Virus record (IMG/VR): IMGVR_UViG_3300019477_000133
Location: 6,076 to 70,075 of that record
Strand: one strand, 5' to 3'
From: a virus
Length of the DNA stretch: 64,000 nucleotides
The notes below the pieces were generated by a model, which saw only the letters and a list, made by a program, of their open reading frames with translations, searched no databases and had not been told where the DNA came from. The stretch's first letter is position 1. Each line of letters starts with the position of its first letter. A program made the translations under genes and the position numbers. Below are positions 3,453 to 48,162 of the stretch, in pieces.

Positions 3453-3713
3453 ATGGAACTTACATTAAATAGTTACAAAATATTTGAATTAGGTAATCAT
3501 ATTTCAACATTTCTTCATGATTGTGGCATAACAAAAGGTGGCGTACTCAATATAAAAGTTAATAAAGAAGAACTGAGAAAAATAGATGAAGACTTATATT
3601 ATAGACAAAATCCAAAAGGAGAAGATTTTATTCCATCAGATAATGAAATTCAAATCTCTTTTCCAAACGTTTCAATAATTATACAATGTGCCGTAAAACC
3701 CACAAGTCTTTAG
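3453..3713 (+). CDS. hypothetical protein
   Basis: 86-aa ORF; its 3' end overlaps conserved element A of the duplicated small-RNA locus. Confidence 0.35.
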   Translation: MELTLNSYKIFELGNHISTFLHDCGITKGGVLNIKVNKEELRKIDEDLYYRQNPKGEDFIPSDNEIQISFPNVSIIIQCAVKPTSL

Positions 3714-3966
3714 CTTATGGGATGTAAGGTACTATTTTTTTCTAAAAAAATGCAATAAAAATGTTGTAGTTTAAAAATTTCTTTGTATCTTTACAAAGTA
3801 ATAGCAATTACATCGGCAGGGACTGTCGATTACACGGGTGGAGAGGAAGTAAGAACTAACAATTAGGAAAGTCATTCCTCCGTGAAGCCCGAAGCACATA
3901 AGTCTTTAGACTGAGTGTAGTTCACACAAACAGAAAGCGACAACCATTTAGTTCGTCGCTTTTTTA
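3688..3966 (+). ncRNA. candidate small structured RNA, copy 1. Element A (3688-3733) is separated from the core (3812-3846, ATCGGCAGGGACTGTCGATTACACGGGTGGAGAGG) by a ~78-nt insert with a promoter-like tatctttacaaag. It ends at an intrinsic terminator (3937-3966).
   Basis: the same A and core sequences recur at 47791-47855; potential internal stems (ggagagga/ttcctcc); terminator hairpin gcgac...gtcgc plus T6. Confidence 0.4.
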
Positions 3967-9502: not shown

Positions 9503-12316
9503 ATGACAAGTAACGTAAAAAGGCATGTGCAGCTGCCAAGAAGCTCACAAAAAGGTAAGAAACCTACAGCAGAAGATTTAAAGTATGGCGAAATTGCTGT
9601 TAACTTTAACGTTGAAGACCCATTCCTCGCTATGAAGGGAAGTGACGACTCAATTATCACAATGGGTTTTAAAGATGGTAAAACTGGACCATGGAAAAAA
9701 GGTGAAGGTGAATATTCTGCAGTGTTAGATAATGGTACACCAACCAGTCCTATTGATACAGTGAATACTGCTACAAAAAGGTATGCTACAGCTGAGGGTA
9801 AAGGTAGTACAGCAAGTGGTGATTACTCTCATGCTGAAGGTAGAGGTACTACAGCAAGTGGTGAAAGTTCTCATGCTGAAGGACAAAATACTACAGCAAG
9901 TGGTGATTCTGCCCATGCTGAAGGCTATAATACTACTGCCAGTGGAATAAATTCTCACGCTGAGGGTAAACATACTACCGCAAGTTTATTTTATTCTCAT
10001 GCAGAGGGTAATAATACTACTGCGAGCGGTGAAAGTTCTCATGCAGAGGGTAATAATACTACTGCAAGCGGTAGTAGGTCTCATGCTGAGGGTAATAATA
10101 CTACTGCGAGCGGTGAAAGTTCTCATGCAGAGGGTAATGGCACTACAGCAAGTGGTAATGCATCTCATGCGGAAGGATATGAAACTACAGCAGATGGAGA
10201 AAATTCTCATGCTGAAGGTAATGATACTACAGCAAATGGAAGTCAATCACATTCTGAAGGTGCTGGTACTAAAGCAATAGGAAGACAATCACATGCGGAA
10301 GGTAATTACACAATAGCAAGCGGTGAAAATTCTCATGCTGAGGGAAATTACACCACAGTCAAAGGTACCAACTCTCATGGAGAAGGAAATCATAAGGTAG
10401 ATTTGATATTAGTTAAAAATATTGCAGTTGGTGATACAAAAATTATTATTGAAAGTAAACGAATGAATATTCCTTCTAATGAGGATTATATTAAAAATTG
10501 TTATATTACAGATGATAATAACATATATAATATTTTAACCATTTCATCATATAATGGAACATTGCCAGCTAATTTCCAAGGTCTTGCAAAAGAAATAACA
10601 GTAGATAAACCTTTGGAAAAAGTATCTAATAATGATACCAATAATCCTACATTTACTTCAGATATATATTCATTTGTAAATATAGCCGTAGGAGAAATAG
10701 ATGGTGGACATTCAGAAGGTAAAAATAATATTGTTTTAGGAGAAGCTGGGCATGCAGAAGGTAAATTTACGATGGCTAAAGGTAGAACATCTCATGCGGA
10801 AGGGTGTAAGACTACGGCAATTGGTGATTATTCACATGTGGAAGGATATACTACTACTGCAGAAGGTATATATTCTCATGCCGAGGGTTATCTAACTAAA
10901 GCAAAAGGTAAAATGTCTCATTCAGAAGGGCTTAGTACCACAGCAGAAGGCGAGAAATCTCACTCAGAAGGAGAGAGTACAACTGCAAGTGGCAGTTATT
11001 CTCACGCAGAAGGTAGTCGCTCCACAGCAAGTGGTAAGAGTTCTCACGCTGAGGGTAATAATACAACTGCAAGTGGACTTTCTTCTCACTCAGAGGGTGA
11101 TTCTACGAGAGCTACTGGTCGATATTCTCACGCAGAAGGTTTTAATACAAATAGTGCAGCAGACTACTCTCACACAGAAGGTGGTGGTGGTATTGCTATT
11201 AGTGTCGCAAGTCACGTAGAAGGTTTACATTATCATGCTTTACAAATAACAGATGACATTGCCGTTGGAAGTACTGAAATGTTTATCTTAGCTTCGGAAG
11301 ATTATTCAGTCAACTTAAATTATTATAAGAATTGTATAATAACGGATAATACTAATACCGTAGCTATTGATGTATTAAGTGCAGAATATGCCTATAATAC
11401 TAAGTTTACCGAATCGAATGAAAACAAACGTATAAAGTTAACTTTAAAAGAAGCATTACCTAAAGCATCTACACGTGCGGAACAAACTGAAGATAACCAA
11501 AAAGATGGATACTTTTATACATGGGATTACAGTATACAGAATAAGGGTACTATAGGAAATTATGGTAGCCACGCAGAAGGGTCATACACAATGGTATATG
11601 AAGATTCTGGTCACGCTGAGGGTAAACTTTCTATATCTAAGGGTAAAATGTCTCACGCTGAGGGTTATCGTACAATTGCAGATGGTAGTGCTGCTCATGC
11701 CGAAGGTTATCAAACAATAGCAAAGGGTGTTAATTCACATGCGGAGGGCGAAAATACTACAGCAAATGGTAATAATTCTCATGCAAGTGGGTTCCACACA
11801 ACAGTTGAAAATGATTCAGAATTTGCTTGTGGTAAATACAATAAGTTTAATGTAAATCAAATTTTTTCAATTGGTGTTGGTACAGCTGATAATGCGAGAA
11901 AAAATGCTTTATATATAACTACAGATGGTGTTATTGGTGGAGATTCACAATTAACTAATGGTGGCACTTCAATGTTTGGTTTGAAGATAAATGGTGGTAT
12001 TCAGGCAAGCGAGGGTATGATATCGCCTACTTATTTAAATTCTTCAGATGAGAGATTAAAGAAGGATATTGAAACAATATCAGAAGATGACATTGATAAA
12101 GTTAAAAATGTTAATTTAAAATCATATGTATTTAAGTCTGATAATAGCAAACATTATGGTGTTATTGCACAAGATGTTGAAAAAGCAGGTTTATCAGAAT
12201 TAGTTACCAATAGTTCTGATGGAATGAAATCTGTTGATTATATTTCTTTATTAATTTTGAAGATTTCAGAATTGGAAAATGAAATAAAGAATTTAAAAGA
12301 ACAGATTAAAAAATAA
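9503..12316 (+). CDS. tail fibre / tailspike with SHAEG-type repeats and a C-terminal intramolecular chaperone (peptidase S74) domain
   Basis: dozens of 14-aa repeats SHAEGnnTTASGxx; C-terminal ...SDERLKKDIETIS...GVIAQDVEK... resembles the S74 autoproteolytic chaperone. Confidence 0.65.
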   Translation: MTSNVKRHVQLPRSSQKGKKPTAEDLKYGEIAVNFNVEDPFLAMKGSDDSIITMGFKDGKTGPWKKGEGEYSAVLDNGTPTSPIDTVNTATKRYATAEGKGSTASGDYSHAEGRGTTASGESSHAEGQNTTASGDSAHAEGYNTTASGINSHAEGKHTTASLFYSHAEGNNTTASGESSHAEGNNTTASGSRSHAEGNNTTASGESSHAEGNGTTASGNASHAEGYETTADGENSHAEGNDTTANGSQSHSEGAGTKAIGRQSHAEGNYTIASGENSHAEGNYTTVKGTNSHGEGNHKVDLILVKNIAVGDTKIIIESKRMNIPSNEDYIKNCYITDDNNIYNILTISSYNGTLPANFQGLAKEITVDKPLEKVSNNDTNNPTFTSDIYSFVNIAVGEIDGGHSEGKNNIVLGEAGHAEGKFTMAKGRTSHAEGCKTTAIGDYSHVEGYTTTAEGIYSHAEGYLTKAKGKMSHSEGLSTTAEGEKSHSEGESTTASGSYSHAEGSRSTASGKSSHAEGNNTTASGLSSHSEGDSTRATGRYSHAEGFNTNSAADYSHTEGGGGIAISVASHVEGLHYHALQITDDIAVGSTEMFILASEDYSVNLNYYKNCIITDNTNTVAIDVLSAEYAYNTKFTESNENKRIKLTLKEALPKASTRAEQTEDNQKDGYFYTWDYSIQNKGTIGNYGSHAEGSYTMVYEDSGHAEGKLSISKGKMSHAEGYRTIADGSAAHAEGYQTIAKGVNSHAEGENTTANGNNSHASGFHTTVENDSEFACGKYNKFNVNQIFSIGVGTADNARKNALYITTDGVIGGDSQLTNGGTSMFGLKINGGIQASEGMISPTYLNSSDERLKKDIETISEDDIDKVKNVNLKSYVFKSDNSKHYGVIAQDVEKAGLSELVTNSSDGMKSVDYISLLILKISELENEIKNLKEQIKK
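9815..10390 (+). repeat. tandem 42-nt (14-aa) coding repeats inside the tail fibre gene; further blocks at about 10748-11183 and 11543-11813
   Basis: periodic tctcatgctgagggtaataatactactgcgagcggtgaaagt-type units. Confidence 0.6.
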
Positions 12317-13303: not shown

Positions 13304-13402
13304 AAAATCCTCCTATTTTATGGGGGATTTTTTTGGTTTTTATAAAAATATTTTGTATCTTTGCACATATTAATTAATTATACATTATATTTTAGAATAA
13401 TA

Positions 13403-27409: not shown

Positions 27410-27482
27410 TGCGCTCATAGCTCAGTTGGTAGAGCACCACACTTTTAATGTGGGAGTCTTGGGTTCGAGCCCCAATGGGCGT
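27410..27482 (+). tRNA. tRNA-Lys(TTT)
   Basis: acceptor gcgctca/tgggcgt (two G.U pairs), D gctc-agttggta-gagc, anticodon stem ccaca/tgtgg with loop ctTTTaa, T-arm ttggg-ttcgagc-cccaa. Confidence 0.8.
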
Positions 27483-27496
27483 ACAACTGAAAAAAA

Positions 27497-27649
27497 TAAT
27501 AGGTAGCCGTACTACCGAATTTACGCTTGTGGACTATCCTCCTATGGATGACTGATTGTAGCAATACAATGTACTAAAAAGTAATGATAGGTTGAAGCAA
27601 GAAGTGAAAAGTACCCAAATCATATATTTGCGTAGATTTTCATATACGG
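27497..27649 (+). ncRNA. orphan copy of the ~155-nt structured RNA found immediately 3' of tnpB (omegaRNA-like scaffold); no adjacent tnpB
   Basis: about 95% identical to 33871-34029 apart from an internal hairpin that differs with compensatory changes (attgtagcaatacaat versus attgagtagtaaactactcaat). Confidence 0.55.
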
Positions 27650-27853
27650 TCCTGAGTTCGAGTCCCAGTGGGCAACTCATACATTTACAAAAAGTAATAC
27701 CCATGCAAATGGTTTCTTGGCTAAGAATGATGCTAATTGTAATTTTAAACAAAACTAATTCAGTAATTGATAGAATTTAGTCGACATAAATTCTTGATAG
27801 CTACGTTGGTAACGTTACAACCAAATTATATCCTATTACATATAGGAGAATCA

Positions 27854-32716: not shown

Positions 32717-33859
32717 ATGTTAAGAGGGATTAAGATAAGATTATATCCAAACAATACACAAGAGCAGGTACTCAATAAGGTGCTTGGGTGTTACCGTTTT
32801 GTTTATAACCAAATGCTTGCTCGAAAACAGAATGCTTATAAAACAGATAAAACAAACTTATCTGTTACCGATTTATCAAAATGGTTTCATGGAACATTGT
32901 TAAAGGATGAACAATATGCTTGGCTGAAAGAACAGAACACGAAGGTGATGAAACAAGCAATCAGACAAATGGATGGTGCTTACCAAAACTTCTTCAAACA
33001 ACATAATGGTTTTCCAAAATTTAAAACAAAGAAGGATAAACAATCGGCATTATTCCCATATGAAGCCATTTCCAAAAAGAATACATTTGAAACCAAACAT
33101 ATCAGTTTGACAACCTCATTAAAGAATATTAAGTTCCGTTGTTCAGATTTGTATTTCAGAAGATTACAAAAGTATAATAAGAATATAAGAAGTGCTACCT
33201 TATCGAAGACCAAGAGTGGTAATTTCTTCTTATCTATCCTTGTTGAATTGGATGATACTGAATTAAAGAAATTTGAACATACAAACAAGCAAGTTGGTAT
33301 TGACCTTGGAGTCAAAGATTTTGTAATCACGTCTGATGGTGAGGTATTTGATAACAAACATTTTTTCAAAGAGAAAGAGAAAGAAGTAAGGATGCTTCAA
33401 AGACAATTGTCAAGAAAAGTTAAAGGTTCTAACAATTGGAATAAGCAACGTGTTAGAATTGCAAAAGCATTTGAAAGACTTACCAACCAAAAGGAAGCCT
33501 ATATACATAGTGTTGTGAATGAGTTATTAACTTATTATGACACTGTATTTATGGAAGACTTGAATGTGAAAGGAATGCTAAAAAATCATCATCTTGCCAA
33601 AGCTATACAAGAGGTTAGTTTCTATAAGTTCAAGGAAATATTGTTTAGCAAGTCACTTGTTAACGATAAAAGTGTTGTGTTTATTGAAAGATTCTATCCA
33701 TCAAGCAAGACTTGCTCACAATGCGGTTATAAGAAACGAGACTTGAAGTTAAGTGATAGATTTTGGATTTGCCCTGAATGTGGGACAAAACATGACAGAT
33801 ATGTTAATGCTGCCATAAACATATTGTTGGAAGGTCAACGAATACTGGCAGCGGTGTAA
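32717..33859 (+). CDS. tnpB: TnpB (OMEGA RNA-guided nuclease, IS200/IS605 OrfB family), catalytic motifs intact
   Basis: N-terminus IKIRLYPNNTQEQ; RuvC-I VGIDLGVKD; RuvC-II VFMEDLNVKGM; zinc finger CSQCG...CPECG; RuvC-III HDRYVNAAINIL. Confidence 0.85.
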   Translation: MLRGIKIRLYPNNTQEQVLNKVLGCYRFVYNQMLARKQNAYKTDKTNLSVTDLSKWFHGTLLKDEQYAWLKEQNTKVMKQAIRQMDGAYQNFFKQHNGFPKFKTKKDKQSALFPYEAISKKNTFETKHISLTTSLKNIKFRCSDLYFRRLQKYNKNIRSATLSKTKSGNFFLSILVELDDTELKKFEHTNKQVGIDLGVKDFVITSDGEVFDNKHFFKEKEKEVRMLQRQLSRKVKGSNNWNKQRVRIAKAFERLTNQKEAYIHSVVNELLTYYDTVFMEDLNVKGMLKNHHLAKAIQEVSFYKFKEILFSKSLVNDKSVVFIERFYPSSKTCSQCGYKKRDLKLSDRFWICPECGTKHDRYVNAAINILLEGQRILAAV

Positions 33860-33870
33860 TAAAAGAAATA

Positions 33871-34029
33871 ATTAGGTAGCCGTACTACCGAATTTACGCT
33901 TGTGGACTATCCTCCTATGGATGACTGATTGAGTAGTAAACTACTCAATGTACTAAAAAGTAGTGATAGGTTGAAGCAAGAAGTGAAAAGTACCTAAATC
34001 ATAGATTTGCGTAGATTTTCATATACGGT
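33871..34029 (+). ncRNA. candidate omegaRNA (right-end RNA) scaffold of TnpB; begins 11 nt after the tnpB stop codon
   Basis: conserved with 27497-27649 including a covarying hairpin; the position matches where IS605 omegaRNAs are encoded. Confidence 0.55.
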
Positions 34030-38727: not shown

Positions 38728-39168
38728 ATTTGCAAAATAATTTGTATAATTGAAATAAATATAGTATATTTGCAAAGTGATTTTTAAATCACATAATAAT
38801 AATAACGGTTGAGGAGATTACTCTTAGACCATTTTTTAATTAAATATTTAAAATAAAATGAAGGCTTTAATTATTATGTTCACAGCTTGCGTAGCACTTA
38901 CTTTTGCTGCGTGTGGTAACAATGTAAAGACTAATACAACTCAGAAGGATTCTGATACGACTGTAGTTGATAGCGTTGATACTGTTACTGTAGATTCAGT
39001 TGTTGCAGATTCTATCGTGAAGTAAGTTTTTTTGCAACTTATGTTCAATATAGCTTTGAACAACATTTTAGCCTTGGTTATTCCAAGGCTTTTTTGTTTT
39101 TATTAACATTTTATTTTTGGTAGTAAAATATTTTGCTTGTATCTTTGCAACATAAAATATAAATTAAC

Positions 39169-39459
39169 ATGAATAGATTCGATTTAAATTTATCAAAACA
39201 TGCCATTCAAGAGATACTTGATGCAAATGGATATGAGATTAAGACATTATTGGTATATTATAGTCCTTTCAGTGATGCATATGATTGGGACAATAGAACA
39301 TCTTTTAGTGTACAACGAGAATATGCTTTCAAGAAGAATAATATGCCAGAAGAAGCAGAGCGTGAAAAGCCAATTTTAGAAGATTTAAAAGAATATGAAT
39401 TGGATAACGTTTTGAATAAAATAATAACTGAATCAATAGTAAGAATATGTTTAAGTTAA
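39169..39459 (+). CDS. hypothetical protein
   Basis: 96-aa ORF after the promoter gtatctttgcaacat. Confidence 0.35.
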   Translation: MNRFDLNLSKHAIQEILDANGYEIKTLLVYYSPFSDAYDWDNRTSFSVQREYAFKKNNMPEEAEREKPILEDLKEYELDNVLNKIITESIVRICLS

Positions 39460-39977
39460 TTGTTTGTACAAATTTGGTTGGTGCCATTGGAAAAGATAAT
39501 AAATTACTTTACCATATTAAAAATGATATGGATAATTTCAAGCGTTTTACCGATGGTAATACTGTGATTATGGGTATGAATACCTATTTGTCTTTACCTA
39601 ACCAGAAACCACTTAAGAATAGAACTAATATTGTTCTTACATCAAATCCTAAATTATGTACTGAGAAATTTGGTAATACAAGTGTCCACTTTGTAAACTC
39701 AATTAATGGTGCTCTCACGTTAATGCGTCATCTTAACATAAAGGATGAAGATGTATTTGTAATTGGAGGTTCTTCTATATATAATGCATTCTTGGATGAG
39801 AATCTTATCAGTGAAGCATATGTTACTGTTGTTGAAGATAAGACAGAAGGAGATGCTTATTTCCCTTTAAAAGAATTTTCTAAAAATAAGTGGAAGAAAA
39901 TTTATGAATCTTCACCTCAAGCAGACCAAGATTTAGTTTTTAAATTTTTAATTTATAAAAACATCGGTAATGAATAA
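39447..39977 (+). CDS. folA: dihydrofolate reductase
   Basis: LIVCTNLVGAIGKDNKLLYHIKNDMDNFKRFTDGNTVIMGMNTY...NRTNIVLTS matches the DHFR N-terminal signature. Confidence 0.75.
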   Translation: MFKLIVCTNLVGAIGKDNKLLYHIKNDMDNFKRFTDGNTVIMGMNTYLSLPNQKPLKNRTNIVLTSNPKLCTEKFGNTSVHFVNSINGALTLMRHLNIKDEDVFVIGGSSIYNAFLDENLISEAYVTVVEDKTEGDAYFPLKEFSKNKWKKIYESSPQADQDLVFKFLIYKNIGNE

Positions 39978-47754: not shown

Positions 47755-47790
47755 TATATGATTCACCATATAAATGGAAATTTATAATAT

Positions 47791-48009
47791 GTGCCGTAAA
47801 GTCCACAAGTATTTAGATTGTGGAATGTAAGACACTATCGGCAGGGACTGTCGATTACACGGGTGGAGAGGGGGTAAGAGCCGACCTTTTGGAAAGCCAT
47901 TCCTCGGTGAATCCCGAAGCCTATGAACATTTAACTCATGGGTAGTCCACGAACCATTACATTAAATAATGTTAAAAACGGAGCTATAATTTGGTAGTTC
48001 CGTTTTTTT
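47791..48009 (+). ncRNA. candidate small structured RNA, copy 2: element A fused directly to the conserved core (47829-47863), a divergent 3' part, and an intrinsic terminator (47976-48009)
   Basis: shares A and core with 3688-3846; terminator hairpin aacggagct...agttccgtt plus a T7 run. Confidence 0.45.
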
Positions 48010-48162
48010 ATTGTATCTTTGTAGTGTAAAATTAATATTAAATCAATAAAGAAATGGAAAAAGAAGAATACGTTTTTGAATCAACCATTATTAGTCTATC
48101 TAATAATGATACAGAAACAGTTAGTACAACAAATGGATTTAAAGAATATTACTATTAGTGTT

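Follow-up and report, generated by a model that had tools for sequence, protein, structure and literature searches.

IS605-group insertion sequences encode a guide RNA, termed omega-RNA or reRNA, across the 3' end of tnpB and the right end (RE) of the element (PMC10055086). PATE-like derivatives of IS605 "often encode omega-RNAs" that need TnpB supplied in trans (Meers et al. 2023, PMC10055086). We describe a locus of this kind in a phage genome, where it replaces most of a gene. The DNA analysed here, referred to as the window, is a stretch of 64,000 nt (positions 6,076-70,075) of virus record IMGVR_UViG_3300019477_000133, an AT-rich phage segment with 16 tRNA genes.

Two copies of a non-coding repeat are found in the window, and a sequence-only reading had taken them for a duplicated, free-standing regulatory small RNA gene. 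Our analysis points instead to the left end (LE) and RE of an IS200/IS605 transposon from which tnpB has been deleted. The copy on which we focus, copy 2, is almost certainly a mini IS605-family element bearing an omega-RNA scaffold, and very probably a non-autonomous, protein-less element of the PATE type whose guide mechanism would operate in trans. It is a fairly ordinary case of a PATE-like, TnpB-less omega-RNA element, and such elements have been described before. The features of both copies are as follows.

47758-47785, + strand: remnant of a Macro-domain gene (ATG and 9 codons), ending in TTTAT (47781-47785), the target- or TAM-like motif before the element.
47786-47950, + strand: copy 2, the whole mini-element of 165 bp, with LE fused directly to RE.
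47786-47836, + strand: LE, which includes element A and a subterminal hairpin (47802-47824, loop TATTTAG).
47837-47950, + strand: RE, the TnpB omega-RNA scaffold or "core" (114 nt), with a 5' hairpin at 47837-47855 and nested stems.
47820-47945, + strand: tnpB relic, the last 36 codons within a 41-aa ORF, overlapped by the scaffold.
47920-47942, + strand: RE hairpin, inside the right end of copy 2.
47943-47950, + strand: terminal motif TAGTCCAC, the end of the copy 2 element.
47951-47970, + strand: would-be 20-nt guide GAACCATTACATTAAATAAT, flanking DNA of which 47951-47965 are the last 4 Macro codons and the stop.
47974-48009, + strand: intrinsic terminator, phage-native and originally that of the Macro gene, outside the element.
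48012-48021, + strand: promoter-like box TGTATCTTTG, phage-owned, serving the downstream small ORF and the lipoprotein genes.
3683-3925, + strand: copy 1, of the same element family, with the tnpB ORF deleted internally.
3683-3735, + strand: LE of copy 1, with TTAT at 3679-3682.
3736-3811, + strand: spacer of copy 1 with a tnpB promoter remnant, ttgtatctttacaaag, just upstream of the scaffold.
3812-3925, + strand: scaffold/RE of copy 1 (covariance model, 120.8 bits).
3926-3945, + strand: would-be guide of copy 1, the flank 3' of RE.

Self-BLAST of the window detected one additional copy of the repeat. The core at 47837-47920 matches 3812-3895 (87% over 84 nt, E 3e-24), and element A at 47782-47838 matches 3679-3735 (82% over 57 nt, E 3e-11). 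These two parts abut in copy 2, as had been read from the sequence, and are separated by 76 nt in copy 1. Homology between the copies extends past 47920 to 47950, through a second hairpin kept by compensatory changes, and the sequence beyond 47950 is the only part that is unrelated between them. A covariance model built from relatives scored two hits in the window, at 124.1 bits for copy 2 and 120.8 bits for copy 1, with the next best at 12.8 bits. With Rfam 15, only tRNAs passed the gathering threshold over the whole window, and a search of the surroundings of the locus in E-value mode gave its best values (E 0.67-9.4) on the terminator and none at the element.

The only match to the core in the annotated phage collection, and its single informative record, was Parabacteroides phage PF672P2 (83.5% over 115 nt). 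This match falls on the last 36 codons of a 414-aa ORF that Pfam identifies as TnpB (OrfB_IS605 1.2e-27, Cas12f1-like_TNB 1.1e-25, HTH_OrfB_IS605 4e-19), and the 41-aa ORF of copy 2 resembles the TnpB C-terminal tail (67% over 36 aa by tblastn). A 23-nt core pattern retrieved 107 stretches of IMG/VR contigs. With the window and PF672P2 counted in, there are 119 copies. A full-length tnpB immediately precedes the core in 62 of them; another 35, spread over ~14 distinct sites, are TnpB-less, and the remaining 22 are truncated at the edges of their loci. In PF672P2 and the 62 viral copies with tnpB, the core starts ~36 codons before the tnpB stop and ends ...TAGTTCAC. Homology between insertions always stops at ...GGGTAGTTCAC, in copy 2 at TAGTCCAC, and this stop, together with the tnpB upstream in relatives, identifies the core as the 3' end of tnpB together with RE.

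In full-length relatives, element A closely precedes tnpB, 1.21-1.26 kb before the core, or, in an alternative layout, 1.56-1.61 kb before it with a divergent 134-aa ORF between. A representative of this ORF is a Y1 HUH transposase, TnpA (Y1_Tnp 1.4e-34), and tnpA was complete in 13 fetched loci. Given its position upstream of tnpB/tnpA and a hairpin matching that of RE, element A is the left end; in this family the LE hairpin is what TnpA recognises and binds. The family is laid out as LE, tnpA (reverse), tnpB (forward) and omega-RNA/RE, the standard arrangement of the IS605 group. Across the family, the LE and RE hairpins have the loop TCTTTAG in common and nearly the same stem. The LE hairpin of copy 2 (47802-47824) consists of TCCACAAG, the loop TATTTAG and ATTGTGGA, and that of copy 1 reads CCCACAAG...CTTATGGG, its basal C-G pair being T-A in copy 2. 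A hairpin in element A of both copies, with one compensatory-looking difference, had been proposed from the sequence, and the wider comparison upholds it: over 20 left ends the hairpin is 88% paired vs 31-50% in slid controls, and 3 pairs are doubly changed. TTAT, usually as TTTAT, stands at a fixed offset to the left of ~20 independent left ends, including every bona fide one.

Two other classes of element were considered and rejected. The copies are not a template and variable repeat pair of a DGR; several differences between them involve A, but other substitution types are also present and differences fall at compensating stem positions. A group I intron or IStron was likewise set aside, with no Rfam intron hit, no intron-like core, and only tnpA and tnpB between the ends in relatives.

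Within its 165 bp the element holds no functional protein gene, only the last 36 codons of tnpB. We find it scarcely credible that the 41-aa ORF (47820-47945) encodes a functional peptide. The frame is open and similar to the TnpB C-terminal tail, but it is just the end of tnpB downstream of the nuclease motif, and it begins with GTG without an evident ribosome-binding context. In addition, the tnpB-tail frame is broken while pairing is kept, by an in-frame stop at codon 18 in copy 1 and by frameshifts in other TnpB-less copies.

Both copies are products of transposition. Two IMG/VR contigs, one of 312 kb and one of 117 kb, share 91-93% identity with the window, and the copy 1 site can be compared among relatives in both states (a slash marks each junction). 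Seven relatives (L124, L126-L131) have an empty site, ...GATTAT/AAAAACAGAAAGCGACAAC, and the window and L123 have an occupied one, ...AATTAT/ACAATGTGCCG...GTAGTTCAC/ACAAACAGAAAGCGACAAC... Comparison of the empty TTAT/AAAAACAG with the occupied TTAT/element/ACAAACAG gives no target duplication, and copy 1 inserted precisely 3' of TTAT. Its two ends match those of the full-length element in L023, from whose interior copy 1 lacks ~1.1 kb; judging from this alignment, copy 1 is a sister deletion derivative that kept a remnant of the tnpB promoter. In one relative (L125/L138) the copy 1 site holds a 49-bp relic. This relic and L143 are single-hairpin remnants of 44-49 bp, in which the LE 5' arm and TCTTTAG loop are joined to the RE 3' arm and TAGTTCAC, apparently through recombination between the identical LE and RE loops.

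A mini-element like copy 2 occupies a different site in the 117-kb, 92%-identical relative (L057/L034; 89% over 168 nt). It has the identical junction between element A and the core (...GTAAGACACT/ATCGGCAGG), the RE hairpin and the TAGTCCAC end. An identical internal junction at two sites in related genomes implies that the mini-element moved as a unit, and is an indirect sign that TnpA could mobilise it in trans.

Full-length elements with tnpB of the same family, hereafter family 1, are found in the 312-kb and 117-kb relatives (L076, L060, L019) at sites that are empty in the window (~13357-13365, ~39128-39141, ~39457-39510). The L060 copy lies in IMGVR_UViG_3300008734_000012. These three insertions have unclean right or left junctions and show ATCTTTGCA microhomology with the phage promoter box. 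One is without the left-end hairpin, and at one a DHFR-like gene has lost 55 nt from its start.

The copy 2 locus had been described as intergenic, and it does now lie between genes, but the apparent gap is really a wrecked Macro-domain gene of which the 9 first and 4 last codons are left. Six relatives (L110-L113, L119, L120) encode a 151-aa Macro ORF (PF01661, 7.9e-20) right after the 180-aa gene, and the intact gene spans 2047-2499 in L110. Identity of these relatives with the window ends right after ...GGAAATTTAT. The window keeps the Macro ATG and 9 codons up to ...AAATTTAT (47758-47785), and the element starts at 47786, its left junction lying exactly after TTTAT in the Macro gene. In the relatives, ...GAACCATTAAATTAA closes the gene, and the terminator found in the window comes next. 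Copy 2 thereby replaces ~415 nt of the Macro gene, so the right junction is not that of a clean insertion. This loss might stem from a pair of insertions that then recombined, from a deletion next to the element, or from imprecise homing. L121 and L122 have lost the Macro gene independently and have no element there.

The terminator with its T-run at the end of the locus, also claimed previously, was recovered by the terminator scan (47974-48007, 14 pairs; 1 site vs 0.6 expected). Its assignment to the element did not survive comparison: L110, L111 and L119 have the same terminator after their intact Macro gene, and so do L121/L122 in the absence of both the Macro gene and the element. The promoter reported immediately beyond it exists at 48012-48021, with 5 exact copies of TGTATCTTTG in the window vs 0.36 expected, but it belongs to the phage and is conserved in relatives with or without the element. 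Its sequence fits the Bacteroidales -7 box consensus TAnnTTTG. Downstream of the box lie a short ORF (48046-48153, MEKEEYVFEST...) and a gene from 48163 (start MDKFKLVFIGMITLLTLASC) with a lipoprotein signal peptide and lipobox; the ORF list starts the lipoprotein gene at TTG 48076, which is probably the wrong start.

These comparisons weigh against the idea of a free-standing, duplicated, trans-acting sRNA whose variable 3' half would pair with phage or host mRNAs. A structured RNA is indeed followed by an intrinsic terminator, and the copies do differ 3' of the conserved part. We nonetheless consider this reading highly improbable, as the conserved part is the tnpB 3' end in 62 relatives, the variable sequence and the terminator belong to flanking DNA that predates the element and also exists where it is absent, no promoter accompanies copy 2, Rfam has no match at the locus, and the would-be seeds match nothing else in the window. 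The suggestion that divergent 3' halves set different targets is retained in part: a variable 3' flank would specify the target of an omega-RNA, but here it is native flank and the target would be DNA, not mRNA. An IntaRNA search against transcripts, proposed alongside that suggestion, is therefore the wrong test, since an omega-RNA would pair with TAM-adjacent DNA.

The view of the conserved part as a structured RNA is strongly borne out by covariation, although as a TnpB guide scaffold and not a regulatory sRNA. Among 58 distinct cores, RNAalifold found 30 consensus pairs, 14 of them with compensatory changes. Paired cells amounted to 96.7% vs 27-46% with partners slid, and 0 of 500 shuffles reached the observed values by any measure; helix 1, which the search pattern had fixed, carries no information in these counts, except in L141 (G-U to G-C). 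The LE and RE hairpins both covary, and frequent G-U pairs in the scaffold indicate + strand sense. The fold of the single sequence is not significant (z -1.32).

One alternative is that the whole 114 nt is needed as DNA for mobilisation by TnpA, with the RNA being irrelevant. In this family, IS608-type LE and RE hairpins are known to serve in DNA recognition (PMC10055086), and the same mini-element is present at two sites, both of which agree with a role as DNA. The relics of 44-49 bp, however, keep just a hairpin and the cleavage motif, and the extra upstream stems of the scaffold covary with G-U pairs that would be C-A mismatches on the complementary strand. For characterised family members such as IS608, a subterminal hairpin and a cleavage motif are all that TnpA requires, which also counts against a DNA-only role for RE. 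We regard such a role as quite unlikely.

Orthologues of copy 2 (window vs L114/L116/L118) offer a measure of constraint. The scaffold is identical at 105/114 positions (92%) without gaps, compared with 38/51 (75%) in LE and 150/181 (83%) at third codon positions of the neighbour gene, and is more conserved than LE or third positions (Fisher p 0.024 and 0.005). Changes in the scaffold between these orthologues fall mostly in loops or convert G-U to A-U and G-C to G-U. This pattern of conservation suggests constraint on an RNA, although gene conversion by other copies could also account for it. Whether the scaffold is under selection as RNA in this phage lineage we judge to be an even question.

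A fossil would look similar in several respects. Under this explanation, copy 2 is a gutted IS605-family element with no present transposon or guide function, and its conservation reflects youth or gene conversion; we consider this entirely plausible, if a little short of an even prospect. In its favour, there is no cognate TnpB or TnpA in the window, copy 2 has no promoter, its guide has no TAM-flanked target among relatives, and LE is decaying in orthologous copies, the LE hairpin being degraded in L003 and L114-L118. The smaller, single-hairpin relics also show that the family erodes. On the other hand, the scaffold changes more slowly than synonymous sites and most of its changes are neutral to pairing, and deletion endpoints cluster at the scaffold 5' edge in several independent lineages. 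Full-length family-1 tnpB copies in close relatives could act in trans, and the absence of partners concerns a 64-kb window that is part of a genome.

The deletion endpoints deserve closer description. Independent deletion derivatives comprise copies 1 and 2, L010, L016/L039/L104 (an internal, in-frame-like deletion), L061, L072 and L141. All of their deletions end within ~20 nt of the scaffold 5' edge, in a set drawn from a core-pattern search that favours copies retaining the 5' hairpin. When ascertained by left ends, the search returned a complete scaffold in four lineages and a lone hairpin in two relics, and no truncations in between.

The core pattern occurs in 107 viral stretches (L002-L108), with several copies per large phage contig, and in 6 stretches (L132-L137) from 185,579 species-representative genomes, mostly Prevotella/Prevotellaceae. 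The IS lineage looks enriched in phages, and the host is probably Prevotella-like.

We propose the following route by which copy 2 could serve as a guide. Transcription running in from the 180-aa gene upstream would produce its RNA, with the phage terminator setting the 3' end; such read-through is proposed because copy 2 has no promoter of its own. The element is co-oriented with the upstream gene, and the terminator lies 24 nt past RE. The transcript would then be processed to the scaffold plus the ~20-nt flank GAACCATTACATTAAATAAT as guide. A family-1 TnpB acting in trans would cut DNA bearing a TTTAT-type motif next to a guide match (TTTAT-GAACCATTAC...), and the equivalent target of copy 1 would be TTAT-ACAAACAGAAAGCGACAACC. 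The DNA cut would be either the donor site once the element has excised or the corresponding site of a co-infecting, element-free phage, and recombination after cutting would restore or spread the element; moving it would require TnpA in trans. Meers et al. describe this arrangement for PATEs (PMC10055086), and it also agrees with the "non-restorative homing" of co-infecting phages treated in PMC13565253.

Partners and targets were sought in the window and its relatives. Neither a family-1 TnpB nor a tnpA is encoded in the 64-kb window; close relatives encode such partners. Several full-length family-1 tnpB copies reside in the two closest relatives at sites empty in the window. Neither the copy 2 guide nor the copy 1 guide has a second match in the window at <=3 mismatches. 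At the empty copy 1 sites of relatives, TTAT is followed by sequence with mismatches to the guide at positions 2 and 20. For copy 2, the bases in front of the guide match in relatives are CTATAT or TTGTAC and not TTTAT, and no TAM-flanked target was found among them. Since neither cognate protein is encoded in the window, activity of copy 2 in this particular genome appears doubtful. A broader hypothesis holds that TnpB-less omega-RNA genes are kept by selection as dispersed guides for a phage-encoded TnpB, which would cut element-free co-infecting relatives among large phages of Bacteroidales, probably of Prevotella. In it, a small number of nuclease genes would work with many orphan guides. 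We view this as unlikely. If true, it would amount to RNA-guided homing combined with competitor exclusion, an array-less, CRISPR-like arrangement serving the virus, and overwriting of cargo genes such as the Macro-domain gene would be possible.

The window's only TnpB belongs to a second family. It is a full-length, Pfam-confirmed gene between tRNA genes (32717-33859, + strand) that matches structures 8EXA and 8H1J at E 1.6e-50 and is 40% identical to family-1 TnpB. Its 3' RNA region is unrelated to the family-1 scaffold and gives no covariance-model hit. The RuvC-III motif reads HDRYVNAA in this protein and [DN]RD[VIL]NAA in ~70 relatives, a single-base change having replaced the catalytic Asp with Tyr, so the nuclease is probably dead in this genome. 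The nearest orthologues (80% and 72% identity) keep the Asp, which makes the change look like a recent lesion and not the mark of an exapted clade. Given its 40% identity, the unrelated RNA region 3' of its gene and the Tyr in place of the catalytic Asp, this protein is unlikely to use the scaffold of copy 1 or copy 2.

The 3' RNA region of the second TnpB (33866-34029, + strand) itself has a TnpB-less copy in the window at 27498-27650 (+ strand, 84% identical), directly after tRNA-Lys (27411-27484), and a further copy lies in L019 at ~11640-11870 on the - strand. All copies of this family end ...TTCATATACGGT, followed by sequence like the 3' half of a tRNA (GGTTCGATTCC or GAGTTCGAGTCCC). The TnpB-less copy in the window indicates that the second IS family also leaves orphan guide-like copies, and this family seems to sit in or beside tRNA genes.

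For annotation, these results replace a regulatory small RNA with a mini-IS carrying an omega-RNA, which explains a conspicuous repeated non-coding element. The lineage is far commoner in phage contigs (107 loci) than in the 185,579 species-representative bacterial genomes (6 hits), and about one third of the classifiable copies are without tnpB yet retain a complete guide scaffold. If orphan guides of this kind are used in trans, they would represent a natural system for RNA-guided homing between viruses and a compact TnpB and omega-RNA pair with a TTTAT-type motif.

Among known systems, the PATE-like IS200/IS605 derivatives (Meers et al. 2023, PMC10055086) resemble copy 2 in having LE and RE subterminal hairpins without a protein gene. 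They also have in common with it an RE that encodes a TnpB guide scaffold, a requirement for both TnpA and TnpB in trans, insertion 3' of a short motif that leaves the target unduplicated, and ends without inverted terminal repeats. Copy 2 differs in its location, a large phage genome of Bacteroidales type and not a bacterial chromosome, in being known from sequence alone, and in its coupling to the loss of ~415 nt of a Macro-domain gene. TnpB and omega-RNA of ISDra2 and the IS605 group (8EXA, 8H1J) are alike in an RNA that runs across the tnpB 3' end to the RE boundary, a structured scaffold, use of the flank as guide, and a TAM that is the insertion motif. The scaffold described here, in contrast, is unrelated to theirs in nucleotides and belongs to no Rfam family, and its protein gene is gone. 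The motif is TTAT/TTTAT here, while that of ISDra2 is TTGAT.

Stand-alone omega-RNA loci away from tnpB or iscB were reportedly described in bacterial genomes by Altae-Tran et al. in 2021. They are comparable in that many dispersed guide copies exist per nuclease gene and presumably act in trans, and they differ in residing on bacterial chromosomes. TldR proteins, said to have been presented by Wiegand et al. in 2024, are nuclease-dead, TnpB-like repressors with adjacent guide RNAs. The TnpB of the window, with a broken RuvC site (D to Y) and orphan guide-like RNAs alongside, recalls them. It is, however, of another family than copies 1 and 2, with an RNA region unlike their scaffold, and the guides of these two copies have no match beyond their own flanks. 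Finally, the free-standing homing endonucleases of T-even phages (Seg, Mob) and non-restorative homing (PMC13565253) have the same expected outcome, in which the element-free allele of a co-infecting relative is cut and the element copied in; the difference would be that recognition here is RNA-guided, by a nuclease proposed to be encoded elsewhere.
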